Source: Alphaproteobacteria bacterium
Lineage (GTDB): Bacteria; Pseudomonadota; Alphaproteobacteria; GCA-2746255
Length of the DNA: 64,000 nucleotides
Assembly (NCBI GenBank): GCA_965249135.1
Contig: OZ252220.1
Span: 864,001 to 928,000 of the forward strand
Reading direction: 5' to 3'
Each line of letters opens with the position of its first letter. The stretch's first letter is position 1. Shown in pieces: positions 22,362 through 38,592 of the stretch. Under the pieces are notes generated by a model that did no database searches, was not told the DNA's origin, and saw nothing but the letters and a program-made list of their open reading frames with translations. The position numbers were made by a program, and so were the translations under genes.

Positions 22362-23021
22362 ATTCAAACCCATCACACCCGTCTTTATCTTCTCACCCCG
22401 CCGAACATCGACCCACAGGCGTTTGCCGAAAGATTAGCCGAAGCGTTGAAAGCGGGCGACGTCGCCTGCCTGCAATTGCGCCTGAAGGAAGCCTCCGACG
22501 ACGCGATCCGTGACGCCGTGAAGACGCTTCTGCCCCTCTGCCACGCCCACGAGGTGCCGCTCATCGTCAACGACCGGGCCGACCTTGCCAACCAGACGGG
22601 CGCAGACGGCGTCCATGTCGGCCAGCGGGACATGGCCTGCGCGAAGGCCCGCGAAATCGTGGGCGAAGAGGCGATCGTCGGCGTTACCTGCCACGATTCG
22701 CGTCATCTTGCGATCCTCGCCGCCGAGGCCGGCGCCGACTACGTTGCCTTCGGCGCCTTCTATCCGACGACGAAGGACACGAAATACCACCCGAACCCCG
22801 AGATCCTCGAATGGTGGAGCGAGACGACGACGGTGCCGTGTGTCGCCATCGGCGGCATCACGCCGGAGAATTGCGCGCCGCTCGTCGCCGCAGGCGCCGA
22901 TTTCCTCGCCGTGCTCCGCGGCGTCTGGGACCACGCGCAGGGCCCGGCGGAAGCGGTCCGCGCCTTCAACCGGGCGATCCGCAAAGCCGCCGATGCGCCG
23001 CCGCCGCCGGAGGCCGCGTGA
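22362..23021 (+). CDS. thiE: Thiamine-phosphate synthase (probable ATT start)
   Basis: [48 protein letters not shown]. Confidence 0.9.
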
Positions 23022-23041
23022 CGCGGTTTTCCTCTGTGTCT

Positions 23042-23674
23042 TTAAGCTATCTTAAGATAGGGCCGTGGCGTACTAACATCCGGACTATGAGCAAGCTCAT
23101 CGCTCCATTGATGCCAACCTGGGTGTGGGTGGCGAGCAAACAATTCAAGATATGGCCCAGAACTACATGCTTCTACAAGGTCATACAATTCGTCTGGCTT
23201 TCTGCTGTGTTCACGCTTACGTGTTGACAACAAATTCGGCATGGTTCGACCCGGCTGTTTTGTGCGCGCATTCTTACCACGCATACCAAACAAAATGAGT
23301 TCAGTCACGTTACGGAAATAAAAGCCAACCCCCCGTCTATCTGGGCCGCCATCTTTTCGAATTTTAAACCAAATAAGATTCGTCTTATACGTGAAGCCCC
23401 ATCGCTTCATTACTTCAAGGCCCTCTGCAACAAGCGCATTTGGGACCCAAAGGTAGAGATGTGCAGTCGAATTAGCCAACCGAGCTATGGAAAGCTCCAG
23501 AATATCCGTTAGATTCATTGTTGAATAACGAGACAATCGCCTGTGCTCTGGAGCCATTTTTCCAGTTCGATTCGTAAATTGCCAAGGAGGATCCACCAAA
23601 ACTGTCGAAAACTTTTGTCCATTAACAAATGCAATGAGCTCATCAGCCGGCACAATCTCACTAGTCATCGACAT
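23042..23674 (-). CDS. MT-A70 family (N6-adenine) DNA methyltransferase of the resident R-M locus
   Basis: DPPW catalytic motif, HLYLWVPN, GFYFRNVTE, REHSRKP, YLELFAR; low GC; start overlaps the endonuclease stop. Confidence 0.9.
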   Translation of the reverse strand: MSMTSEIVPADELIAFVNGQKFSTVLVDPPWQFTNRTGKMAPEHRRLSRYSTMNLTDILELSIARLANSTAHLYLWVPNALVAEGLEVMKRWGFTYKTNLIWFKIRKDGGPDRRGVGFYFRNVTELILFGMRGKNARTKQPGRTMPNLLSTRKREHSRKPDELYDLVEACSSGPYLELFARHPHPGWHQWSDELAHSPDVSTPRPYLKIA

Positions 23675-23975
23675 ATGCCTCCTGCTTTATTCCAAAAACT
23701 GCAACGGGGCATCCCCCACCTCCCCCACCTTCAATCCTAGGCAGCAATCGACTCATATGAGTGGTTGATGAGCCATACTTTTTGCCTTTTCCAAGATCAT
23801 CGAAGATTTTCTGTAATTCATCGCAACGCGTGACTATAACTCCAACATCAATGGCCCTTAGATCGAATAAAAGCCGAAAGTTGTTTAAATCGCGATCGAA
23901 GAAAGGATCTTTGTTGTTCCACTCGACCTCAAGAGCAACTCGATTCTTAAAACAGTCAACTTTATGTGTGGGGCT
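23661..23975 (-). pseudogene. 3' half of BglII/BstYI-family restriction endonuclease interrupted by IS
   Basis: SPTHKVDCFKNRVALEVEWNNKDPFFDRDL (D..ExE nuclease core); joins in frame to 26712..26972 once the IS and one TSD are removed. Confidence 0.88.
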
Positions 23976-23983
23976 TTCGTAAA
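23976..23983. repeat. Target-site duplication TTCGTAAA (left copy)
   Basis: Identical 8-mer at 26712..26719 directly outside the other TIR. Confidence 0.92.
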
Positions 23984-24008
23984 GGGACTTGCGTAGCAAA
24001 ATCAGCAA
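23984..24008. repeat. Terminal inverted repeat (downstream end of IS)
   Basis: GGGACTTGCGTAGCAAAATCAGCAA, inverted partner at 26687..26711. Confidence 0.9.
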
Positions 24009-24033
24009 GCCGCCGGTTCAAGCCCATAACTAC

Positions 24034-24219
24034 TCACTTTTTTCTGGTCAATTTGTAGGGTTGCTCGCACTCTTTTTTCGTGGGCTCGCGGTTCTGGCTT
24101 CGCGGGCGGCTGGGCGCCGGGGCCAGCATGATCCGGCGCAGCGCTTCCTCGAACTTTCCCCGTTCGACGGGGTCTCTGTCCGTTGGATCAAGTCTCGGAG
24201 TGTTGGGCTTTCGGGGCAT
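24034..24219 (-). CDS. Small basic hypothetical protein, last ORF of the IS
   Basis: 61 aa with ATG 15 nt after the endonuclease stop, same strand, ends just inside the TIR. Confidence 0.55.
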   Translation of the reverse strand: MPRKPNTPRLDPTDRDPVERGKFEEALRRIMLAPAPSRPRSQNREPTKKECEQPYKLTRKK

Positions 24220-24233
24220 TACTTGTCTTCCAA

Positions 24234-24848
24234 TTATGGCAACACTCCGACTAGGACGAGCGGCACCGCTGGGACACCCCGACCTTGCCGCAGTACATTC
24301 AGCAGATCGCGTTCATAGTAGGGAACGCCGCTGGACATTTCCCGCTCCAATTCCTTCATCGGCAATATTTCAATCCCAACGTCAATGATATCAGACACAC
24401 AGAAACTCAGATGCTTCACGAACAAATCGTGTGCCACGAAGACATATTTGCCGAACTGAACCTCAACAGCTACACGATCCTTCACAAAATCGGTCTGATT
24501 GTAGGACATGATCGGCACATGTCCGGCTGCTTGGATCGCCTCTTTTTGCTCATGCTCTGGACGGCCATAGATGCCGCGCAATAGTTTCTCATCATCCGTC
24601 ACCCAAAACGTGTTTCTTCGCTCGCCCCAATCCCGCGCTTCAAGCCCAGCCTTGAATGCGGAATTCATCTCCGGCGGGGAATAGAGCACCCGCCCCATCA
24701 TGGTCTTTTCCTTGGATTCCTTGGTCTTGCACACTGCGGCATCGACTTCCGCTATCACGTCCCGAACCTCTCGCCAAAGTTCGTGCCGATGAACCAACAG
24801 ATATTCCTCGCCGTTAAGGTGAGAATACCGCGCTCCGATCCGCATCAA
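24234..24848 (-). CDS. BstYI-like type II restriction endonuclease (IS passenger)
   Basis: YSHLNGEEY, KESKEKT, LYSP, SYNQTDFVKDRVAVEVQFGKY (D/E/Q catalytic triad), RQGRGVPAVPLVLVG; closely resembles R.BstYI as recalled. Confidence 0.88.
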   Translation of the reverse strand: MMRIGARYSHLNGEEYLLVHRHELWREVRDVIAEVDAAVCKTKESKEKTMMGRVLYSPPEMNSAFKAGLEARDWGERRNTFWVTDDEKLLRGIYGRPEHEQKEAIQAAGHVPIMSYNQTDFVKDRVAVEVQFGKYVFVAHDLFVKHLSFCVSDIIDVGIEILPMKELEREMSSGVPYYERDLLNVLRQGRGVPAVPLVLVGVLP

Positions 24849-25675
24849 TGTCCGCCGTTCGGCAAGGTGGGGTCATAGATTGGCTTATTCATCGGACGGG
24901 TGCGAAGTTCACCGGCCTCAAGGGCCTTCACCCTCTTTTTCGCTATCTGCACATACTCGCCCATGACATCGCAGCCGTAGGCAAGCCGCTCATGCTTGAG
25001 TGCGGCAACGATTGTCGATCCAACGCCCATGTAGGGGTCGAACACGGCATCGCCCCGGTCTGTCATGGAAAGCACGAGGCGCTCCACCAACTCCACCGGA
25101 AACTGGCACGGATGGATTGTCTTCTCCGGGTGATTGTTCTTGACGTTCGGGAACGCCCAAACGTCGCTGGGATTCTTGCCTTTTGGGTTGCCGGACAACT
25201 TACCTGCGTTCGGCCCCTTGAAGTGCCGCTTGTTCGGGTACTTGGGCGGCACCCGAATTTGATCTAGGTGCCAAGTGTAATCATCGCCCTTTGTCCACCA
25301 GTTGATGGTTTCATAGCGCCCCGACAGGCGCTTGGTGCAGTGCAAGCCGTGTCCGAAATTCCATATAATCCGGTTGCGAAGCTTGAATCCCTGCGCGTGA
25401 AACAATGGATAGAGCAACGCATCGAGCGGCATGATCTCACCGTTCTCGACATAGTTCCCTACCTGCCAGCATATCGAGCCTTGGTCATGCAGGAGGCGGG
25501 CGCACTCGCCGATGACACGTTCCTGCGTGGCGAGGTAGATATCGAGGCTGGATTTGCCTTCGTAGGATTTGCCGAGATTGTATGGCGGCGATGTAACGAT
25601 CAGCTTGAATACCTCATCCGGCAAGGGCCGCATGAATGCGACATTGTCCTTGCAGGCGAGTACGGCCCGACTCAT
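24845..25675 (-). CDS. Beta-class amino (probably N4-cytosine) DNA methyltransferase (IS passenger)
   Basis: TSPPYN motif IV near the N-terminus, HPCQFP, FDPYMGVGST motif I near the C-terminus. Confidence 0.92.
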   Translation of the reverse strand: MSRAVLACKDNVAFMRPLPDEVFKLIVTSPPYNLGKSYEGKSSLDIYLATQERVIGECARLLHDQGSICWQVGNYVENGEIMPLDALLYPLFHAQGFKLRNRIIWNFGHGLHCTKRLSGRYETINWWTKGDDYTWHLDQIRVPPKYPNKRHFKGPNAGKLSGNPKGKNPSDVWAFPNVKNNHPEKTIHPCQFPVELVERLVLSMTDRGDAVFDPYMGVGSTIVAALKHERLAYGCDVMGEYVQIAKKRVKALEAGELRTRPMNKPIYDPTLPNGGH

Positions 25676-26625
25676 CGTTCCTCCGACTCCGCCACCAAAT
25701 CCCTGTACCGGAGCCGCTTGCCACCGATTCCACTGGCGAGAGCCGCCATGCGGTCCAGGGTATCGACTTCGCAGTTACCCTCGTTCAGCCGGAATGCCGT
25801 CTCATCGACGTAGCGGCTCAGATGCTTTGCGGAAACGCGGTACCACGTTCCGGTGATCGAGCGCTTGAGTACGGCCCATACGCTTTCGATCCCGTTGGTA
25901 TGTACGCCGCCGTCTCGGACGTACTCCTTGGCGCTGTGATTGACCGTCTCGTGATCGTAGGGAAGTTCCTGATAGGCCGAGGCGTCGTCGGTATAAACCG
26001 TGGCGTCCGGCGCGGCATGGGATTTGACGAAGCCGATCAGGGTAGCCACGTCGGTGCGCTCGATTGGCTTGGCGGCGACCTTGCCGCCCCGTTCCCGTGC
26101 GCCTATCACAGGAGTCTTTCCGACTGGACCCCGACCGGCGCGTAGTTTCTTCTTGGAATGTTTGTTGCGCTCGCGGCCGCCGATGTAGGTCTCGTCAACC
26201 TCCACGACCCTTTCAAGGGTGAACTCTCCCCCGGCGCAGGCTTCTCGAATGCGGTGGAGCATATGCCATGCGGTGCGGTACTGGCAACCCAGTTCCTTCG
26301 AGAGTTGCATGGCGCTCACGCCCTTGCGGGCCGTCAGAACCGAGTAGATGGCGAATACCCAGTCCTGCAACGGCTTCTTGGTAGAATGCAGGCACGTCCC
26401 TGTAGTAACCGTGAAGTGATCCCGGCAAGCCTTGCACCAGTAGGCTTTCGGCTTGCTCGGCGACGGCATCCTGATCTCATCAACGCTCCCGCAATTCGGG
26501 CAGATCGGAGTACCGCCCCAGCGCACCAACTCCAACCACTCGCGGCAAGCTTTCTCGTCCGGGAACAGCCGGTAGAGTTGAGGGACACTGATGGTCTCGG
26601 CGGTTCGTTTTTTGTTCTTGCTCAT
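25672..26625 (-). CDS. IS1595-family transposase
   Basis: Zn ribbon CPNCGS..CKAC, HTH KGVSAMQLSKELG..TAWHMLHRIR, VEVDETYIGG, VYTDD, VNHS..EYV, HTNGIESVW. Confidence 0.95.
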   Translation of the reverse strand: MSKNKKRTAETISVPQLYRLFPDEKACREWLELVRWGGTPICPNCGSVDEIRMPSPSKPKAYWCKACRDHFTVTTGTCLHSTKKPLQDWVFAIYSVLTARKGVSAMQLSKELGCQYRTAWHMLHRIREACAGGEFTLERVVEVDETYIGGRERNKHSKKKLRAGRGPVGKTPVIGARERGGKVAAKPIERTDVATLIGFVKSHAAPDATVYTDDASAYQELPYDHETVNHSAKEYVRDGGVHTNGIESVWAVLKRSITGTWYRVSAKHLSRYVDETAFRLNEGNCEVDTLDRMAALASGIGGKRLRYRDLVAESEER

Positions 26626-26651
26626 GGGAATTCCCCTGTTGACTGCTGATT

Positions 26652-26680
26652 ATTATATGTTAAATGAAATCAGATGTCTA
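26652..26680 (-). promoter_or_regulatory. Sigma70 promoter of the IS operon
   Basis: TAGACA-17 nt-TATAAT on the minus strand, just inside the TIR and upstream of the transposase ATG. Confidence 0.75.
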
Positions 26681-26686
26681 CAGGTT

Positions 26687-26711
26687 TTGCTGATTTTGCT
26701 ACATAATTCCC
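26687..26711. repeat. Terminal inverted repeat (transposase-proximal end)
   Basis: Reverse complement GGGAATTATGTAGCAAAATCAGCAA. Confidence 0.9.
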
Positions 26712-26972
26712 TTCGTAAACCGTTTCGTCGACAACGATGCTGGTTTCAAATCCTTTTTCTTTCCACCCAAGACGGTAGAAATGTCCATCTAACTTGTTGG
26801 CGATTAGCGACTTGCGTCCACCGGGTGCAAGAACATCCGTACGCATCAATTTGAAAGAGCCAAGAACCTTCACTATGTCGCTCCATTCACCTGAATGCGC
26901 CGCCGTCAGAATCGCCATTGCGTTCCGCCACTCGTGAATTGCATAAAGGCGTCTGATCTCTTTCGGGACCAT
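26712..26972 (-). pseudogene. 5' half of the interrupted BglII/BstYI-family endonuclease (includes right TSD 26712..26719)
   Basis: AGGAGG RBS then MVPKEIRRLYAIHEWRNAMAIL..PGGRKS..GWKEK..VVDETVYE, after which the frame enters the IS end. Confidence 0.88.
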
Positions 26973-27217
26973 TACGCCTCCTACATCCTGTTACTACAAA
27001 ACACTTTCCCACAAAATGTAGCACTTCTAAAAGTTTGGCTAAACAGATGTCTCTCGAACTAGCCATAAGACACCTATTGGAACAAATCAAGAACGTTCTA
27101 GATTTTGTTGGTATGTGGAAGATTCGGCGTCAAAGACCCGTTTTATTGCCCAAGCCGCGGCGACCTGTTAGGTATCCCCGCGGCGATTCTTCGAAAAACC
27201 TTAACTCACCTACGAAG

Positions 27218-27787
27218 ATGAAGATCAGCGGCAACGCCATCCGTTCCGGCATGGTGATCGAACACAAGGGAAGGCTTTCGGTGGCGGTGAAGACCCAGCA
27301 CACTCAGCCCGGCAAGGGCGGCGCCTATCTCCAGGTCGAGCTGCGCGACATCCGCGACGGCACGAAGCTGAACGAGCGTTTCCGCTCGAGCGAAGACGTC
27401 GAGCGCGTCCGCCTCGACCAGCGGACCTACCAGTATCTCTATCGGGAAGAGAAGCTCCTCACCTTCATGGACACGGAGACCTTCGACCAGGTGACGATCG
27501 ACGAGGCGCTCCTCGGCGAGGCGGTAGCCTTCCTTCAGGACGACATGACGGTTACCATCGAATCCTACGAAGGCGACCCGGTGGGCGTGACGCTGCCCGA
27601 CACCGCCGTCTGCACGGTTACGGAAACGGAAAGCGTGATCAAGGGGCAGACGGCGGCTGCTTCCTACAAGCCGGCGGTTCTCGACAACGGGGTCCGCATC
27701 TCCGTGCCGCCGCATATCGAGATGGGCAATCGCGTCGTCGTGAACACGGCGATGCGAACCTATGTCGAGCGGGCAAAAGATAAATGA
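27218..27787 (+). CDS. efp: Elongation factor P
   Basis: MKISGNAIR start, HTQPGKGGAY, KGQTAAASYKPA, YVERA. Confidence 0.96.
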   Translation: MKISGNAIRSGMVIEHKGRLSVAVKTQHTQPGKGGAYLQVELRDIRDGTKLNERFRSSEDVERVRLDQRTYQYLYREEKLLTFMDTETFDQVTIDEALLGEAVAFLQDDMTVTIESYEGDPVGVTLPDTAVCTVTETESVIKGQTAAASYKPAVLDNGVRISVPPHIEMGNRVVVNTAMRTYVERAKDK

Positions 27788-28602
27788 GCACGCGGTCTGC
27801 CATCATCAACGTCATGGAGGGCGCCGCCCGCAAGGCAGCGCGCGCGCTCGTGCACGACTTCGGCGAGGTTGAACAGCTCCAGGTCTCGAAGAAGGGGCCG
27901 GGCGATTTCGTGACGAATGCCGATCTCAAATCCGAGAAGATCCTGCACAGGGAATTGCGCCGCGCCAGGCCCGATTACGGACTCCTGCTCGAGGAAAGCG
28001 GGGCCGAAGAAGGAACGGACCCGGACCACACCTGGCTTGTCGACCCGCTCGACGGCACCTCGAACTTCCTTCACGGCAATCCCCACTTCTCCATCACGAT
28101 TGCGCTCAAACGCGAAGACAAGATCGTGGCCGGGATCATCCTCGATCCGATCCAGGACGAACTCTTCTGGGCGGAACGCGGCGGCGGTGCTTTCCTGAAC
28201 GACCGCCGGCTTCGCGTCTCGGCACGCACCCGGCTGGATGAGGCGCTGCTCGCCTATGGGGAACCCTTCGGCGGCCGTACCGGTAAAGAGATTTTCGCCA
28301 AGGTGCTGCCGCTGGTCATGGAAAGGACGGCCGGCATCCGCCGCACCGGGGCGGCCGCCCAAGACCTCGCCTATGTCGCCGCCGGACGTTTCGACGGCTA
28401 TTGGGAGGACGGCCTCAAGCCTTGGGATATGGCGGCCGGCATCCTGCTCGTCCAGGAGGCGGGCGGTTACGTGACGGAAATCGGTGGTGGCAAGAACATG
28501 CTCGAATCGGGAAGTGTGCTCGCCACGAACGACCGTCTCTACCCTGCCGTCGCCGGATTGCTGCGCGAGGCCTATGCGGCGGCGGGTGAAGTAACGGATT
28601 GA
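27784..28602 (+). CDS. suhB: Inositol monophosphatase family protein
   Basis: DFVTNAD, WLVDPLDGTSNFLHG, WDMAAGILLVQEAGG. Confidence 0.92.
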   Translation: MSTRSAIINVMEGAARKAARALVHDFGEVEQLQVSKKGPGDFVTNADLKSEKILHRELRRARPDYGLLLEESGAEEGTDPDHTWLVDPLDGTSNFLHGNPHFSITIALKREDKIVAGIILDPIQDELFWAERGGGAFLNDRRLRVSARTRLDEALLAYGEPFGGRTGKEIFAKVLPLVMERTAGIRRTGAAAQDLAYVAAGRFDGYWEDGLKPWDMAAGILLVQEAGGYVTEIGGGKNMLESGSVLATNDRLYPAVAGLLREAYAAAGEVTD

Positions 28603-32380: not shown

Positions 32381-33025
32381 ATGGCTGGAAAGCACGAATC
32401 CGTCTTTGCGGCGACGGACGTCCTCCGCATGTTTCCGACGTTTGTTTGGAAGGCTGAGCTTGAACCAGAGATTCATCGAAGAATCAACAAGAGCATCATC
32501 CACAAGCTCGAACAGATAAGACGATCCGGTCCAGAGCTTGCCCCCGGTCAGGGTTGGCAGTCGGGTAACGACCTACACAAATGGAATGAATTTCGTGAGC
32601 TGGCGTCTTGTGTGAACCACGCTGTCAGGCGTGTCTTGGACTTCCTGAAGATCGGTGAGGTGGATTTTGAAATAACCGGTTGTTGGGCCAGCATGAGCCC
32701 GCCCGATGCCGCGCATGGAATGCATAACCATCCCAACAATTTCCTGAGCGGTGTCTACTACGTACAGACGAATAAGGGGGCCAATACCATCAACTTCCAT
32801 GATCCGAGGTCCCAGGCGGAAATCATCAAGCCTCCGGTAATGGGATTGACCGCCGAGAACACGGATCAGGTCGTGGTCAAGGTGAGGAACGGGACCCTTT
32901 TGATCTTCCCCTCTTGGTTGGCGCACTCGGTGGACACCAACAGGAGCGATGAAACAAGAATAAGCATCAGTTTCAACGTCATGTTTTCCGCATATGCAGA
33001 AAAGATGAGCAAGCCACTTTGGTAG
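32381..33025 (+). CDS. Putative 2OG-Fe(II) oxygenase (TIGR02466-like)
   Basis: HNHPNNFLSGVYY, FHDPR, LLIFPSWLAHSV, RISISFN. Confidence 0.85.
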   Translation: MAGKHESVFAATDVLRMFPTFVWKAELEPEIHRRINKSIIHKLEQIRRSGPELAPGQGWQSGNDLHKWNEFRELASCVNHAVRRVLDFLKIGEVDFEITGCWASMSPPDAAHGMHNHPNNFLSGVYYVQTNKGANTINFHDPRSQAEIIKPPVMGLTAENTDQVVVKVRNGTLLIFPSWLAHSVDTNRSDETRISISFNVMFSAYAEKMSKPLW

Positions 33026-33206
33026 CCGAGGCATTGTCACATTTACGACCCTGGACGTATGACGACGCTAACTTACCAGGCGTCATGCGGTGGCCGTCAC
33101 CTCCGCCCAAGCATCGAAGGCTTCGGCGTAAAACCGTCGCAAGCTGCCGCCATTCGCACCCGTAGCTCGGGCCTCATCCGGAAATCGCTGAGAGAAAAGG
33201 ACTTAG

Positions 33207-33235
33207 TGGCGAGGGGGCAGTCTCGAGCGAACCCG
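33207..33235. repeat. att-like direct repeat (partner 33955..33984)
   Basis: TGGCG-AGGGGGCAGTCTCGAGCGAACCCG vs TGGCGGAGCGGGTAGTCTTGAGCAAACCCG, 25/30. Confidence 0.55.
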
Positions 33236-33355
33236 CCTCCATAGAACCGGCCTGTAATCGACTAGGTCCTACCCTCTAACGGACGGAGATCACTTGGCTA
33301 TTTAGCCGAATTCCCTACGCGACGTGACATTCATATTGCCCGTCCCCATCATCGT

Positions 33356-33814
33356 CTAGGGGTGCTTGTCGTATGCGTCGATCTCGTCATCGGCATTCAT
33401 AAGACGGGATGCAGGATCGTCACCCGGATATTCGTCGAATTCGATGACGTTGCGATCCGGATCGCGCACAAACAATGAGTTCATATCGTTGACGGTGAAA
33501 CGCCCCGTGATCTCGATCTTGTTCTCGTTCAGGAACGCTTCGAGATCGGCCAGCGATTCGATCTTCAACGCCATGTGGTTATACCCGGCGTATTTTCGAT
33601 CGATGTCCATCAGGACATTTTCATCTTCTTGAACCGTGCTCGGGCCAAGCAGGTTCAGCACGACGCCTGATGCATGGCGCATAATAATCGGATGGCCTTT
33701 CTCAAAACCGGCGTCGAAGATCAGTTTAAACCCGAACTTTTCGTAGAAATCGGTCGCGCGCTGTTTCTCTTTCACGCGGATACCGATGTGATCGATTTTC
33801 TGTATGGCCACCAT
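33356..33814 (-). CDS. VOC/glyoxalase family protein
   Basis: IDHIGIRV..FYEKFGF, YNHMAL, FVRDPDRNVIEF. Confidence 0.88.
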   Translation of the reverse strand: MVAIQKIDHIGIRVKEKQRATDFYEKFGFKLIFDAGFEKGHPIIMRHASGVVLNLLGPSTVQEDENVLMDIDRKYAGYNHMALKIESLADLEAFLNENKIEITGRFTVNDMNSLFVRDPDRNVIEFDEYPGDDPASRLMNADDEIDAYDKHP

Positions 33815-34085
33815 GGCAGCTCTCCTTATATAAGAACGACCCCATTCTCCCGGCCCGGCTTGTGACGCGACTGGGCGCAAAGGCCCGCAGACTGCCGGGA
33901 ATTATGCCGGCAAACTAAATCCCGACTAGAGATTTCATGAACTCAAAGACGTGTTGGCGGAGCGGGTAGTCTTGAGCAAACCCGTTTTTCGCGCCCAAAT
34001 TCGCTGTTAAACAGCGAAAAACAGGGAATTTTCTGCCGGGACAGGGCGGCTGGAAAACTTTCCGCGACTCCCCCAAAGAAAAACA

Positions 34086-34101
34086 TTGACCGACCGATCT
34101 A
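34086..34101. promoter_or_regulatory. Putative TetR operator overlapping -35 of tetR gene
   Basis: TTGACCGACCGATCTA, an imperfect TAGACC-N4-GGTCTA-type palindrome. Confidence 0.55.
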
Positions 34102-34120
34102 AGTATGGGATACCTCCCCC

Positions 34121-34711
34121 ATGAGCCGAGGACCAGACAAACAGTTCGACCCGCCCGAGGTCCTGGAAAAGGCCATGGAACTCTTCTGGGCGAAAGGATA
34201 CGCAGCCACGGGGTTGGCTGAACTACAGGAGCAGATGGGCATCGGCAGAAAGAGCCTTTACGACACGTTCGGAAACAAACGCCAGCTTTTCATCAAGGCC
34301 CTGCAGCATTACTCGGATAGCGTGGTACGTCGGATGTTCAATGAGCTTAAAAAAGAAGGATCACCCCTTGGCAATGTTCGCCGTTTTATGCGGGCACTTC
34401 AGGAGCAGCATTCCATGCCGGTGAGCAACGGCTGCCTATTCGGCGTGAGCATGGCCCAATTCCGCACCGATGATCCGGAGATCGCCGAAGTGCTGCGCCG
34501 CCACTTAAAAAGCATCGAAGAAGCCTTCTACAGGACGTTCAAGCGCGCCCAGGATGTGAGCGAGTTGGACGAAAATACGAACGTCCGGGACTTAGCCCGG
34601 CTCTATATGGGAATCGCTCAGGGCCTGGCCCTGATCGGACGGGTGCAGGATACCCCGGCGGTGCCGCGCAGCATCGTGAACGCCGCATTAGCGACGCTGG
34701 AGACGGCTTGA
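34121..34711 (+). CDS. TetR/AcrR family regulator (NemR/ComR-like)
   Basis: AMELFWAKGYAATG..MGIGRKSLYDTFGNKRQLF HTH, GCLF motif. Confidence 0.92.
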   Translation: MSRGPDKQFDPPEVLEKAMELFWAKGYAATGLAELQEQMGIGRKSLYDTFGNKRQLFIKALQHYSDSVVRRMFNELKKEGSPLGNVRRFMRALQEQHSMPVSNGCLFGVSMAQFRTDDPEIAEVLRRHLKSIEEAFYRTFKRAQDVSELDENTNVRDLARLYMGIAQGLALIGRVQDTPAVPRSIVNAALATLETA

Positions 34712-34729
34712 TATTTTTTTATCTAAACA

Positions 34730-34745
34730 TAGACCGATTGGTCAA
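34730..34745. promoter_or_regulatory. Putative TetR operator upstream of SDR gene
   Basis: TAGACCGATTGGTCAA palindrome. Confidence 0.6.
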
Positions 34746-34762
34746 GGAAAAGGAGAAAGACC

Positions 34763-35512
34763 ATGCGCAAGTTGAACAACAAAGTTGCAGTCGTTACCGG
34801 AGGAAGCAGTGGCATAGGCTTGGCCACCGCCCAGCGGTTCATCGCCGACGGGGCTGAAGTCGTCATCACGGGTCGCAACCAGGAAGCCCTGGATGCCGCC
34901 GTCGCCGAACTCGGCGACCGGGCTACGGGCATCCAAGGTGACGTTGCGAATCTCAAAGATTTGGACCGTTTGTACGCTCAAGTGAAGGAGCGGTTCGGCC
35001 GTGTGGACGTGCTCTTTGCGAACGCGGGCATCGCACCGTTTGTCCCATTCAAGGCGGTGACGGAAGAACACTTCGACGATCTGTTCAACATCAACGTCCG
35101 AGGCCTCTTCTTCACGGTTCAAAAGGCCCTGCCACTTCTCGCCGAAGGTGCGTCGGTCGTTCTCAACGCCACCGTCCTTGCGCAGATCGGGCTACCGAAC
35201 ACGAGCGTTTATTCGGCATCGAAAGCAGCGGTTCGTTCGCTGGGCCGCACGCTTGCAGCCGAACTCTCGCCTCGCGGCATCCGTGTCAACGTCGTCAGCC
35301 CAGGGCTCATCGAAACGCCACTCGTCGGCAAGCTCGGTCTGAGCGAGGACGAAGTTGCCGCCCTTGCCGGGCAGATCGTTCAACAGACCCCGCTCGCCCG
35401 CCCGGGTAGACCCGAGGAAATCGCTGCAACCGTGGCCTTTCTCGCCTCCGACGATGCGAGCTACTTCACCGGCGCCGAGTTCGTTGCCGACGGCGGACTG
35501 TCCCATGTCTAG
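34763..35512 (+). CDS. SDR family oxidoreductase
   Basis: TGGSSGIG, FANAG, YSASK, NVVSPG. Confidence 0.93.
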   Translation: MRKLNNKVAVVTGGSSGIGLATAQRFIADGAEVVITGRNQEALDAAVAELGDRATGIQGDVANLKDLDRLYAQVKERFGRVDVLFANAGIAPFVPFKAVTEEHFDDLFNINVRGLFFTVQKALPLLAEGASVVLNATVLAQIGLPNTSVYSASKAAVRSLGRTLAAELSPRGIRVNVVSPGLIETPLVGKLGLSEDEVAALAGQIVQQTPLARPGRPEEIAATVAFLASDDASYFTGAEFVADGGLSHV

Positions 35513-35543
35513 ACCCGATAACACATCACAAGGAGTAAGACCC

Positions 35544-35918
35544 ATGACGAATACTCAAGCAAACGCGAACGATCATGACGCGATCATAAAAACCCTCCAG
35601 CCCTACATCGATGGTGCCAGGTCCGGCAAAGGCGACGACATGAAACCCGCCTTTCACGAGGACGCGACGGTCTTCGGTTATGTCGGAGACGACCTTTTCG
35701 CCGGGCCCATCGAGAAGCTTTATGCCTGGAACGATGAAAATGGACCGGCAGCCGGGCTTCATGCGCGGATCGCCGACATCGACATCGTCGGAACGGTTGC
35801 CACCGTGCGGCTCGAACTCGACGACTGGACCGGTTACCGGTTCACCGATTTGTTCACGCTGCTCAAAGTCGATGGCGCGTGGAAGATCATGAACAAGGTC
35901 TTCCATCTGCATTCCTGA
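35544..35918 (+). CDS. NTF2-like/putative lumazine-binding protein
   Basis: RBS AGGAG then MTNTQ; YIDG..AFHEDA..FTDLFTLLKVDGAWKIMNKVFH. Confidence 0.8.
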   Translation: MTNTQANANDHDAIIKTLQPYIDGARSGKGDDMKPAFHEDATVFGYVGDDLFAGPIEKLYAWNDENGPAAGLHARIADIDIVGTVATVRLELDDWTGYRFTDLFTLLKVDGAWKIMNKVFHLHS

Positions 35919-35937
35919 CGGAGCAAGGAGCAAGGCT

Positions 35938-36806
35938 ATGAACCAGATTCTTTCCACCACGTCGTCGACGCTGAGCACGCCGCAATCCATTGTGGAGACA
36001 CGCGCGGCGTTGTCCTTCATTCGCCCGCAGGACACGAAACCGGTGTTCCTGAGCGCCGCGCTGACGGGCGGCGCCGCGCAAGTCTTCTTCGAGGCAGACG
36101 AGCATACGGTCCCGATCGGCGATATGCGGGAGATCGCAGACACGCTGTCCATCGACCGTGAAGGGTTCGAGCTGCTGCGCCATCCGACCGCCGTTCGGGA
36201 CCTCTACGACGATGCCGCGGTGAACAGCCGGTACTACCCGGAAATCGAGGCGCTTCTGCGCCAACGGTTCGACGCCGACCGGGTCGTGATTTTCGACGCA
36301 ACCCGGCGCTCCGATGGCGACGCAGGGGCTGCAAACCGCGACGGTCTGCGCGGCCCAGCCAAGCGCGTACATGTGGACTACACCGTAAAAAGCGGCCCCC
36401 ACGCATGAAGGACGCGCTTGGCCAAGTCGAGGCGGCACGCCTTGCCGCGTCCGGCGCACGGATCATCCAGGTCAATGTCTGGCGACCGATCCACGGCCCC
36501 GTCGCGCGTGCGCCGCTAGCCCTTGCCGATGCATCCACCATACGGCCGGAGGAATTAATCGCGACCGATCAGGTGTTCCCCGACCGCATCGGCAAAATCT
36601 ACCACCTCGCCCATGCGCCGTCCCAGCGCTGGTACTTCGCGCCGCGCATGACTAGGGACGAGGTTCTGCTGATCAAGGGTTGGGACAGCCTCGATGACGG
36701 CCGCGCGCGCTTCACCCCGCACGGCGCGTTCGAACTCCCCGACACGGCCAAAACCGCGGCCCCGCGCGAGAGCATCGAGCTGCGCAGCTTCGTGATCGTC
36801 GAATAG
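35938..36806 (+). pseudogene. CmcJ/NvfI (AsaB-like) oxidoreductase, frameshifted near 36400
   Basis: LSIDREGFEL, YYPEIE, VHVDYT in frame 1; QVNVWRPI, PLALADA, WYFAPRM, FTPHGAF, RESIELR in frame 2. Confidence 0.8.
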
Positions 36807-36831
36807 GGGTGTTTTTTTTAAGCGTGGCCCG

Positions 36832-37017
36832 CTACTTCCTGAAAAACCGTTCGACGTCTTTGCCGTGGGATTGCTTCGCGGCGATCGCTCGCCGAACCCG
36901 CGCGATTTCCGCTTCCAGTTCCGCGATGTAATCCTTCAGCTCCTCTATCCCCATCGGGGTGAGGTCTTTACGCTTAGGTTTCGCCTTCTGCGGCAAATTT
37001 TCGTCGTCGACGTCCAT
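36832..37017 (-). CDS. DUF1192 family protein
   Basis: DLTPMGIEELKDYIAELEAEIAR..FFRK; divergent from quinone oxidoreductase. Confidence 0.85.
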   Translation of the reverse strand: MDVDDENLPQKAKPKRKDLTPMGIEELKDYIAELEAEIARVRRAIAAKQSHGKDVERFFRK

Positions 37018-37125
37018 TTTTGCTTCCGCCGAATCGGGCCTTGCCTTACTTGCGCGTTCCGAGCGACGATCCTACACCACCCGGCCCGGTCCCGACACTT
37101 GGAACGCAAAAGTGAAGCTACGAAC

Positions 37126-38127
37126 ATGTCCCTTCCCACGCCCTCAAAGATGGCCGCGATCGAAATTACCGGGCCCGGCGGCCCGCAGATGCTTGCGCTC
37201 GTCACAAGGTGCGTGCCGGAGCCGGGCCCCGGCGAAGTCCTGGTGAAAATTGCCGCGGCCGGCGTCAATCGCCCGGACATCATGCAACGCGAAGGCGCCT
37301 ATCCGCCGCCGAAAGGTGCTTCCGACCTTCCGGGCCTCGAGGTCGCAGGGCAGGTTGTGGCGTTGGGCCCGGACGTGACGGAACTCAAATCCGGCCAAGA
37401 GGTCACCGCCCTTCTCGCCGGCGGCGGCTATGCGGAATATTGCGTGGCGTCTGCGCCGCTCGCACTTCCCATGCCCCGAGGACTTAACATGGTCGAGGCG
37501 GCCTGCATTCCGGAAACCTTTGCCACGGTCTGGACAAACGTCTTCGAGCGCGCAAACTTAAAGTCCGGCGAGACCCTCCTCGTCCATGGCGGAACCAGCG
37601 GTATCGGCACCACGGCGATCCAGCTTGCCAAGGCCTTCGGCGCCACCGTGCTGACGACGGCGGGGAGCGATGCGAAATGCGCCTTCTGTGAAGAGCTCGG
37701 CGCGGACCTTGCGGTTCCTTACCAGGCGGACGACTTCGTCGCCGCCGTCAAGGCCTTCACCTCGGGGCGCGGCGTCGACGTGATCCTGGATATGGTCGGC
37801 GGCGACTACATCCAGCGCAACCTCGATTGCCTGGGCACGGAAGGCCGCCTCGTCCAGATCGCTTATCTCAAGGGCGCCAAGGTGGAACTGAACCTCACAC
37901 GCCTTCTCTTGAAGCGGCTGACCCTTGCCGGTTCCGTGCTGCGCTCGCGCAGCGTGGACGAGAAGGCGCGCATCCTGGCGGGACTCTTTGAGCACGTCTG
38001 GCCGCTGCTTGAGGAAAAGCGCGTGAAGCCGATCCTCGATTCGACCTATCCGCTGAAAGATGCCGCCGAAGCCCACCGGCGCATGGAAACCAGCCAGCAC
38101 ATCGGCAAGATCGTGCTGGTTCCTTGA
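37126..38127 (+). CDS. NAD(P)H-quinone oxidoreductase (PIG3 family)
   Basis: AAGVNRPD..YPPPKGAS..PGLE, HGGTSGIG, HIGKIVL. Confidence 0.92.
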   Translation: MSLPTPSKMAAIEITGPGGPQMLALVTRCVPEPGPGEVLVKIAAAGVNRPDIMQREGAYPPPKGASDLPGLEVAGQVVALGPDVTELKSGQEVTALLAGGGYAEYCVASAPLALPMPRGLNMVEAACIPETFATVWTNVFERANLKSGETLLVHGGTSGIGTTAIQLAKAFGATVLTTAGSDAKCAFCEELGADLAVPYQADDFVAAVKAFTSGRGVDVILDMVGGDYIQRNLDCLGTEGRLVQIAYLKGAKVELNLTRLLLKRLTLAGSVLRSRSVDEKARILAGLFEHVWPLLEEKRVKPILDSTYPLKDAAEAHRRMETSQHIGKIVLVP

Positions 38128-38202
38128 AGCAGTGGCCGATGGGCCGCGGGTCCCTTTGACGAAGGCCCCCTTGGTGCCAGGAGGGGACCTTGAGGCTGCC
38201 GG

Positions 38203-38592
38203 TCAGCTTAATACGGTCGGTGACCGTTCGCCCGAAACGAACCGGATAACATCGACAACATCGATGACCAGCGAGACGGAGTTTAAAAGCACCAGCGACG
38301 CCAGCCAGATGCCGAAGGGACTGTCCACGCCAACCTCGCCTAATCGAAAGCCGAACCAGATCACAAGCGGTATCCAAAAGATGTGACCCAGCCCAAGCAA
38401 TCGTACGAAGCCGAGCCTTGAGTGAAGTGTGGATTGCACGATAGCACCGGCAAAAAATGCGGCGATTGCAAGTTGTGCCTCTAATGTCTGGATATAAAAC
38501 AGCGGCACGACGAAATTTACCGCCACCAAAAGCATTATCTAGGCGACCCATGGAGCGGGCATTTTCAATATGGACTTCATCCATCCAATCAT
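38203..38592 (-). pseudogene. Small membrane protein with in-frame TAG at codon 18
   Basis: MIGWMKSILKMPAPWVA-TAG-IMLLVAVNF.. continuing as 4 hydrophobic segments; TAG at 38539..38541, probably from TGG. Confidence 0.65.

Follow-up and report, generated by a model that had tools for sequence, protein, structure and literature searches.

We analysed a 64,000-nt window of an alphaproteobacterial genome (contig OZ252220.1, 864,001 to 928,000; all coordinates are positions within this window unless given as genome positions). The window contains an insertion sequence (IS) of the IS1595 family that lies inside the endonuclease gene of a resident restriction–modification (R-M) system and carries passenger genes of its own (Table 1). 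Its genes form an overlapping operon on the minus strand, in which the transposase gene is followed by genes for a beta-class methyltransferase and a BstYI-type endonuclease, with a conserved 61-aa open reading frame (ORF) in last place. Of the two resident R-M genes, the methylase gene is whole and the nuclease gene is split.

The element is bounded by terminal inverted repeats (TIRs) that are identical at 22 of 25 positions and form the longest inverted repeat between 23600 and 27100. Its two ends read GGGAATTAT and GGGACTTGC, in keeping with the consensus of the ISNwi1 subgroup, whose ends are about 25 bp long and begin GGnnATTAT. Immediately outside the TIRs stand two copies of an 8-bp target-site duplication (TSD), the length expected of the IS1595 family. 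The copies agree at 8/8 positions, for which the probability at one fixed pair of places is ~1.5e-5. The initial annotation of this DNA had proposed a 2728-bp element with exactly these TIRs and this TSD, and all were found where it had put them; the ISNwi1 group, ggnnatTAT ends and duplication of about 8 bp that it invoked agree with the sequence. The promoter-like site upstream of the transposase gene is a consensus match only; such matches numbered four in the region, not above shuffled sequence (3.0, s.d. 1.7). The GC content of the element is about 0.57, compared with 0.60 for the host genome, which consists of one contig of 2.12 Mb.

The transposase gene is apparently intact. Its frame is open, the PF12762 match spans profile positions 2-153 of 153, and in an alignment of 17 transposases the window copy has all of the invariant residues D144, D213, E247, K254, E275 and R279, together with the invariant zinc-ribbon cysteines C42, C45 and C67. 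The catalytic motif of IS1595 transposases is known as DDEK+ER4. The protein may be active. In the translated methyltransferase, SPPY near residue 29 precedes an FxGxG-like motif near residue 214, and the beta class is defined by an (S/D)PPY motif ahead of the cofactor-binding motif. The methyltransferase start overlaps the transposase stop (ATGA) and its own stop overlaps the endonuclease start, an arrangement in which translation would be coupled. For the endonuclease, the start is probably the ATG at 24845 rather than the TTG at 24848, which gives 203 aa as in BstYI.

This passenger nuclease closely resembles BstYI (structures 1sdo, 1vrr and 2p0j). It has the same length, matches 1sdo with an E value of 2.7e-82 over 203 residues and is identical at ~126/203 positions, or about 62% by hand count. 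The catalytic D..E.Q stretch, which the initial annotation had picked out as a BstYI-like D..EVQ core, is kept (DFVKDRVAvEVQFGKY aligns to BstYI). From the identity of about 62%, the passenger system is probably RGATCY-specific, and the methyltransferase would likely perform cytosine-N4 methylation within such a system. Both enzymes are predicted to be active. The small ORF encodes a basic protein for which protein Atlas matches were hypothetical proteins only (0.88-0.90). It had tblastn matches in 17/76 loci of related transposases (see below), and in an alignment of 15 loci with the window copy, N43, R44, P46 and E50 were invariant within a SENREPT-like stretch that contains the invariant N-R-x-P. 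Two 1436-bp elements without cargo, L025 and L051, have this ORF immediately after the transposase gene, and we therefore assign it to the transposon backbone. Taken together, these features support a transporter IS (tIS) of the IS1595 family with passenger genes and ISNwi1-like ends. The transposon is compact, and the BstYI-type R-M pair on board looks complete. The gene content given in the initial annotation was borne out.

Table 1 Features of the window and IS1595-family elements elsewhere in the genome.
Feature	Position	Strand	Remarks
IS1595-family element	23984..26711	genes on -	2728 bp; genome 0.89 Mb; methylase + BstYI-type nuclease + small ORF; duplication TTCGTAAA
TIR, end distal to transposase gene	23984..24008		22/25 vs 26687-26711; core GTAGCAAAATCnGCAA common to ends of related elements
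TIR, transposase end	26687..26711		outside-in GGGAATTATGTAGC...
TSD, left copy	23976..23983		TTCGTAAA
TSD, right copy	26712..26719		TTCGTAAA
Promoter-like site	26652..26680	-	TAGACA, 17 nt, TATAAT; 11/12 consensus; between TIR and transposase start
IS1595-family transposase, 317 aa	25672..26625	-	PF12762 4.9e-42, PF12760 6.9e-10
Passenger beta-class N4/N6 DNA methyltransferase, 276 aa	24845..25675	-	PF01555 2.7e-51
Passenger type II endonuclease, BstYI-like, 204 aa as annotated	24234..24848	-	PF09195 2.3e-33
Conserved small ORF, 61 aa	24034..24219	-	no Pfam match; backbone gene
Resident endonuclease gene, C-terminal part	23661..23983	-	PF09195 positions 69-163, E 4.4e-34 (match 23664-23981)
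Resident endonuclease gene, N-terminal part	26712..26972	-	PF09195 positions 1-61, E 2.6e-6; 87 codons
Resident MT-A70-family DNA methyltransferase, 210 aa, intact	23042..23674	-	PF05063 2.8e-29, profile positions 1-171 of 172
Strain-specific island, resident R-M pair + element	23025..27144		4120 bp (4.1 kb), between thiE and efp
L263	genome 1.28 Mb (1278500-1284500)		methylase + 224-aa ORF without assigned function; 2515 bp; duplication CTTTTTTA, flanks perfect
L264	genome 35 kb (33000-38500)		methylase + 219-aa ORF without assigned function; ends not delimited
L265	genome 1.51 Mb (1509000-1516000)		C5 methylase, HNH nuclease, Vsr; 3666 bp, ends 25/25, flanks 7/8
L262	genome 1.04 Mb (1038000-1045000)		methylase-Mrr fusion; ends not delimited
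L266, sixth element	genome 669500-676500		3481 bp; 8-bp flanks match after one-base shift of ends

The insertion divides the resident endonuclease cleanly. The C-terminal part comprises its last 106 residues, with final codons that overlap the start of the methyltransferase gene, and the frame of the N-terminal part runs on for 13 codons into the element (ORF 26670-26972). At the break, the protein would read ..ETVYE before and SPTHK.. after the element. When the element and one repeat were removed in silico, a 191-aa open frame was restored that aligns over residues 2-191, gapless and at 53.7% identity, with a Dyadobacter plasmid gene that is intact and annotated as a BglII/BstYI-family endonuclease; it also aligns with an Acinetobacter plasmid gene of this kind. 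The resident and passenger nucleases are both PF09195 proteins, and with both halves matching this family the insertion into an endonuclease gene of the same family, as initially annotated, is confirmed; the fragment had no match among solved structures. Neither half has accumulated a stop or frameshift, and the insertion is therefore probably recent. The older methyltransferase gene has been left intact, also as initially annotated. Plasmid homologues of this MT-A70 protein (64-68% identity) adjoin BglII/BstYI-family endonuclease genes, and on nine plasmid records common to both match lists the nuclease and methylase matches lie within about 1 kb of each other. The pairing of MT-A70 with a BglII-family nuclease is thus a real and recurrent R-M type. 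Loss of its endonuclease would leave the MT-A70 methyltransferase as an orphan, with one specificity replaced by another.

The resident pair and the element together make up an island that is absent from all five same-genus genomes (5/5), in which thiE and efp are adjacent; the nearest of them (G002, L006) has 14 bases in place of the 4120. The GC content of the resident parts of the island is 0.42-0.47, and only 1.9% of the 500-bp windows of the genome fall below 50% GC. Because thiE and efp adjoin each other in the relatives and because the GC content is this low, the resident pair is placed in a strain-specific, low-GC island, and the pair itself was probably acquired horizontally. No repeats and no integrase were evident at the island borders. 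The empty-site allele that the initial annotation proposed to look for was not found, neither as an uninterrupted resident pair at thiE-efp in the five same-genus genomes nor as a contig joint among those listed for three public runs (X1-X3) that contain the stretch; contigs drop rare variants, so that the latter negative does not address a minority allele. A joint from 22696 to 27306 in X2 has 21 letters on its shorter side and may stem from a relative, and was not used as evidence.

To place the element among its relatives, we scanned one genome per species for related transposases and obtained 76 loci, the best 74% identical. By means of the shared end core, 20 elements could be delimited, 14 of which have identical 8-bp flanks, and a second pass added six further elements with perfect duplications. 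Related elements have the core GTAGCAAAATCnGCAA at each end, with GGGAATTRT in front of it; of 16 such elements listed, all start with GG and 15 with GGGA. Lengths range from 1390 bp, for an element without cargo that has six copies in one genome, to 4046 bp. Matching flanks were absent in 6/20 delimited elements, including L072 and L079. These two lie on the same chromosome record with their flanks swapped, the left flank of each being the right flank of the other, as an inversion through recombination of two IS copies would leave them.

R-M cargo is found across this family. A near-complete transposase gene together with at least 1.5 kb of sequence beyond it was available at 39 loci. In 12 of them a DNA methyltransferase homologue follows downstream in the same orientation, and in 11 of these 12 it lies within 140 bp. 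As a rough control from a different collection, a methylase occurs within 3 kb downstream in 3/71 distant relatives (45-52% identity) on viral contigs, these being the assessable ones among the 80 kept of 535 stretches (L182-L261). When 30 cargo ORFs of the relatives were compared with Pfam, methylase, restriction-nuclease or HEPN domains were recognised in 16, a weak protease match in one and no domain in 13; ten of the ORFs without a Pfam match also had no NCBIfam match. The commonest recognisable passenger is a one-gene PF01555 methylase fused to a nuclease, namely HNH (L024, L042, L046, L047), T5orf172 (L032, L049) or Mrr (L052 and, in this genome, L262). Other cargoes were a single-chain type IIG-like enzyme (L029, L048), an N6 methylase with a specificity subunit (L044), a methylase with a SmaI-like nuclease (L031) or with a weak NotI-like match below the cut-off (L028), a HEPN protein with a large methylase (L045) and a ResIII helicase (L033). 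The genome under study contains six full-length IS1595 transposase genes. A methyltransferase gene comes next in five of them, these being the ones whose cargo was scanned (all but L266), and the five account for 5/11 PF01555 or PF00145 loci above the cut-off in the genome.

Next, we considered where else the BstYI-type cassette occurs. A metagenome scan with the nuclease yielded 80 loci, kept at 58-80% identity by best segment. In 72 of them a methylase gene lies just upstream of the nuclease gene, and in most of the other eight the contig ends there. The cassettes are mostly without a transposase gene, unlike the window copy; an IS1595 transposase gene or fragment directly precedes the methylase gene in 6/80 (L099, L112, L104-L106, L113). 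Of these, L112 forms an entire element of 2.66 kb, bounded by inverted ends of its own and flanked by the duplication CAAACTTG, and its transposase frame is open. L107 retains an inverted end beside the methylase gene, without a transposase gene. On the metagenome contigs L104-L107 and L113, an IS1595-type end, GGGAATTATATACTTGACTAACC, is kept and the transposase gene is truncated or gone, which suggests cassettes that remained after decay of their vehicle.

The transposases of these cassettes are 42-50% identical to that of the window, and the methylase and nuclease 71-79%. In a quick transposase tree (support from the Shimodaira–Hasegawa-like approximate likelihood-ratio test (SH-aLRT) only, midpoint root, careful search unfinished), the window transposase falls inside a supported group with quite different cargo and L099 in a separate supported group. 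Conversely, very close transposases carry different cargo (L031 versus L035; L026 versus L048). Because the same cassette sits behind distant transposases and close transposases precede different cargoes, the sequences indicate that cargo is exchanged between backbones. Recombination inside the transposase gene was considered as a route for such a swap and found no support: windowed identity to L099 and L112 is not raised at the C-terminal end of the window transposase relative to the rest of the alignment, and there it stays below the identity to L018.

Target sites were tabulated for the relatives as well. The duplicated targets are mostly A/T-rich (AAATATTT, AAACTAAA, TTCTTTTT, TTTTTTTG and others), with exceptions such as CAGCGAAA. 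Rebuilding the empty sites gave ten junction-spanning frames, of which six had no Pfam match, two were weak or uninformative (a giant ORF with a hydrolase domain and a weak SLT match) and two were informative. One of the latter belongs to threonyl-tRNA synthetase; the junction falls 25 codons into its open frame, in what may be the stretch just ahead of the gene proper. In the other, L021 (L021:4432-6183, 1752 bp, without R-M cargo, duplication CAGCGAAA) interrupts a C5 cytosine methylase gene (PF00145 1.6e-37) ~300 codons into a 357-codon frame, beside a Uma2-family gene. In the genome under study, three other delimited elements sit at the ends of open frames, not inside them.

These observations are best accommodated by an ISNwi1-like tIS with BstYI-type R-M cargo that inserted, without being aimed, into the resident nuclease gene, a reading that we consider likely as a whole. 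A DDE transposase would recognise the two 25-bp inverted ends and insert the whole 2.7-kb unit, generating the 8-bp target duplication. Directly behind its gene would travel the two type II R-M genes, the stop codon of one overlapping the start of the next, and with the methyltransferase placed first the modification enzyme would be made no later than the nuclease; the small conserved backbone ORF would close the unit. One copy would have landed in an R-M pair of low GC content, gained by horizontal transfer and made up of a BglII-family nuclease and MT-A70, and would have struck its endonuclease gene. Of the old system an orphan methyltransferase would thereby have remained, while the host gained a second system, probably specific for RGATCY.

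The site itself would need no aiming. The family appears to prefer A/T-rich 8-mers, the island is among the few A/T-rich, dispensable stretches of a compact 60%-GC genome, and the surviving insertions would be those that spared the methyltransferase gene. The resident nuclease gene holds 110 of the 108,992 8-mers of the genome with at least six A/T (0.10%), which is ~3.7x its share of the length. Chance landing on a permissive A/T-rich site is most likely the explanation and the simplest reading, because targets are A/T-rich, because the island is both A/T-rich and dispensable, and because an insertion that struck an essential gene, or the methylase gene of a live R-M pair, would be lost. The initial annotation had offered such chance insertion into A/T-rich DNA as its alternative, and this alternative fits better than targeting.

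Several points weigh against this reading. The element is single-copy in the genome, where no second exact copy was found, its nearest transposase relatives are 74-76% identical, and near-identical DNA occurs only in the three runs of one sample from one study; for these reasons we infer its movement from the ends, the TSD and the relatives, some of which are multi-copy. The self-mobile R-M transposon of the initial annotation consequently stands as an R-M transposon with an intact-looking transposase, its mobility being the conjectural part, and the search for further copies that it proposed turned up relatives with R-M cargo but no second exact copy. The three runs may moreover be the source sample of the genome, in which case they check the assembly and do not count as independent occurrences. 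A recognisable domain is absent from the 13 cargo ORFs noted above. Finally, even with an A/T preference the prior probability of striking this gene is ~0.1% per insertion, which makes chance a matter of judgement, and L021, lying in a DNA methylase gene, could hint at some preference for R-M genes; given the few sites, such a bias may exist and would be modest.

One alternative places the insertion elsewhere, on a plasmid or in another host, with the composite 4.1-kb island then gained whole between thiE and efp. We consider this unlikely, although it explains several observations: all 4.1 kb are missing from the five same-genus genomes without any intermediate in which the pair is uninterrupted, homologous R-M pairs of the resident type are common on plasmids, and the base composition of island, element and host differs. 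However, the borders of the island offer neither repeats nor an integrase, and since the genome contains five further IS1595-family elements whose ends are perfect or nearly so, insertion on the spot would have been equally easy. Nothing dates either event; the element may have entered the pair at this locus or may already have been in it when the island was gained.

It is improbable that the element is a fossil, whole-looking and immobile, whose R-M genes are now resident host genes. Its single copy, the three mismatches among the 25 positions of its inverted ends and the BstYI-type cassettes that have lost all or part of their transposase gene (L104-L107, L113) would all suit such a history. 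The open transposase frame with every invariant residue kept argues against it, as do the perfect TSD and the undecayed split gene, which point to a recent event.

More improbable still is an aimed or selected form of R-M competition, in which the element prefers restriction genes or knock-outs of the nuclease are favoured, for example because the incoming methylase covers the sites of the resident enzyme; R-M transposons would then routinely displace older systems. The common PF09195 family of the two nucleases and the insertion of L021 into a C5 DNA methylase gene beside a Uma2-family gene are in its favour. Nevertheless, only 1/10 junction-spanning frames among the relatives is a DNA methylase, and the three other delimited elements of the genome lie at gene ends, so that the recurring R-M competition raised in the initial annotation did not hold up. 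The window was itself chosen for its hit in a restriction gene and thus is no evidence for such a preference. No solved enzyme lies close to the resident nuclease, which makes any overlap in specificity with the passenger conjectural, and the resident methylase is of the MT-A70 type, unlike the passenger methylase. Separately, AGATCT, an RGATCY site, is the most under-represented palindromic hexamer of the genome (284 observed, 484 expected, ratio 0.59), with whole-genome ratios of 0.83 for GGATCC and 1.01 for the non-palindromic AGATCC/GGATCT. Its scarcity would fit long exposure to a BglII-like enzyme and is a lead on such past pressure, yet as a single genome count it carries no weight here.

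An assembly artefact that placed the element wrongly, for which nothing speaks beyond the general risk in metagenome assemblies, is extremely improbable, since both junctions are bridged without differences by separate short-read contigs, on the left by X2 record 9 (22400-24513), X1 record 2 and X3 record 19 and on the right by X1 record 7 (26267-27800) and X2 record 16, and an 8-bp TSD with in-frame restoration of the host gene is unlike a chimera. Among the loose contig ends listed, none lies at the element ends. The misassembly test set by the initial annotation, reads spanning both junctions, was in this way passed at the level of short-read contigs.

Elements of related kinds are already in print. 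Siguier, Gagnevin and Chandler reportedly described passenger-carrying ISNwi1 and ISNha5 groups of the IS1595 family in 2009, and may also have listed R-M cargo. Like other IS1595 tIS, the element of the window combines a zinc-ribbon DDE transposase, ends of about 25 bp, an 8-bp duplication and passengers behind the transposase gene. Both IS1595 and IS66 are families with known tIS (bioRxiv 10.1101/2021.05.26.445724); in MTnSag1 and tISCpe8 the transposase is of the IS1595 type and the ends measure 25 bp (PMC5704250), and the passenger genes of ISNha5, of the IS1595 family, are transcription regulators (PMC11891212). The same review, quoting Siguier et al. 2009, names regulators, methyltransferases and resistance genes as passengers of various IS families (PMC11891212). 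The named tIS have genes for lincosamide resistance or for regulators as cargo; here the cargo is an entire R-M pair, and the backbone includes a conserved small ORF in addition.

In the units described by Furuta, Abe and Kobayashi (2010), imperfect inverted repeats enclose R-M genes and 8 bp of the target are duplicated; one of them, from Neisseria gonorrhoeae, has 26-bp repeats and includes a gene with a transposase motif (PMC2853133). The authors were unable to name the mover of the units, regarded the transposase-like gene as a likely inactivated derivative and referred to Siguier 2009 as one of the studies in which IS flank R-M or methylase genes (PMC2853133). Our element shares with these units, as there described, the inverted repeats and the short duplication, its empty site being available only through in-frame restoration and homologues; it differs in its intact-looking IS1595 transposase gene within the operon and in a target that is itself a restriction gene. 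Defence systems, R-M among them, are also regular cargo of Tn7-like transposons (Benler et al. 2021, PMC8649781), but those are large, multi-gene and site-specific in their targeting, whereas the window element has one transposase and measures <3 kb. Among plasmid records, none contained at least 80% of the element; the best plasmid DNA match was an R-M pair on a Sphingobium plasmid (68%, without the transposase gene), and the best plasmid match to the transposase was 46%. A full-text literature search, which did not extend to ISfinder or REBASE, found no paper on IS1595 elements with R-M cargo as a class. With passenger IS1595 elements and transposon-like R-M units both in print, what is new here is a further member and its instructive insertion site.

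R-M systems are known to move between genomes, yet the vehicle is rarely visible; here vehicle, ends, duplication and damage can be seen in one locus. An element of <3 kb with one transposase would deliver a complete defence system and, in the same step, make an older one an orphan methylase. The order of its genes, methylase first and translation presumably coupled, offers a simple model of how a nuclease gene might be moved safely. The breadth of R-M cargo in the clade and in this genome is of more interest than the single insertion. Because DNA methylases are carried by about a third of the near transposase relatives and by five of the six IS1595 copies in the genome, the data suggest that the part played by small IS-type transposons in R-M turnover is under-counted. 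It is possible, and we put this forward tentatively, that the ISNwi1-like clade is a dedicated modular R-M carrier, in which the slot behind the transposase gene is variously filled, cargo is swapped and which provides the main route for R-M systems in small genomes, sometimes silencing older ones. If so, the slot would take methylase and nuclease pairs, methylase-nuclease fusions and single-chain type IIG enzymes, often with overlapping stop and start codons.

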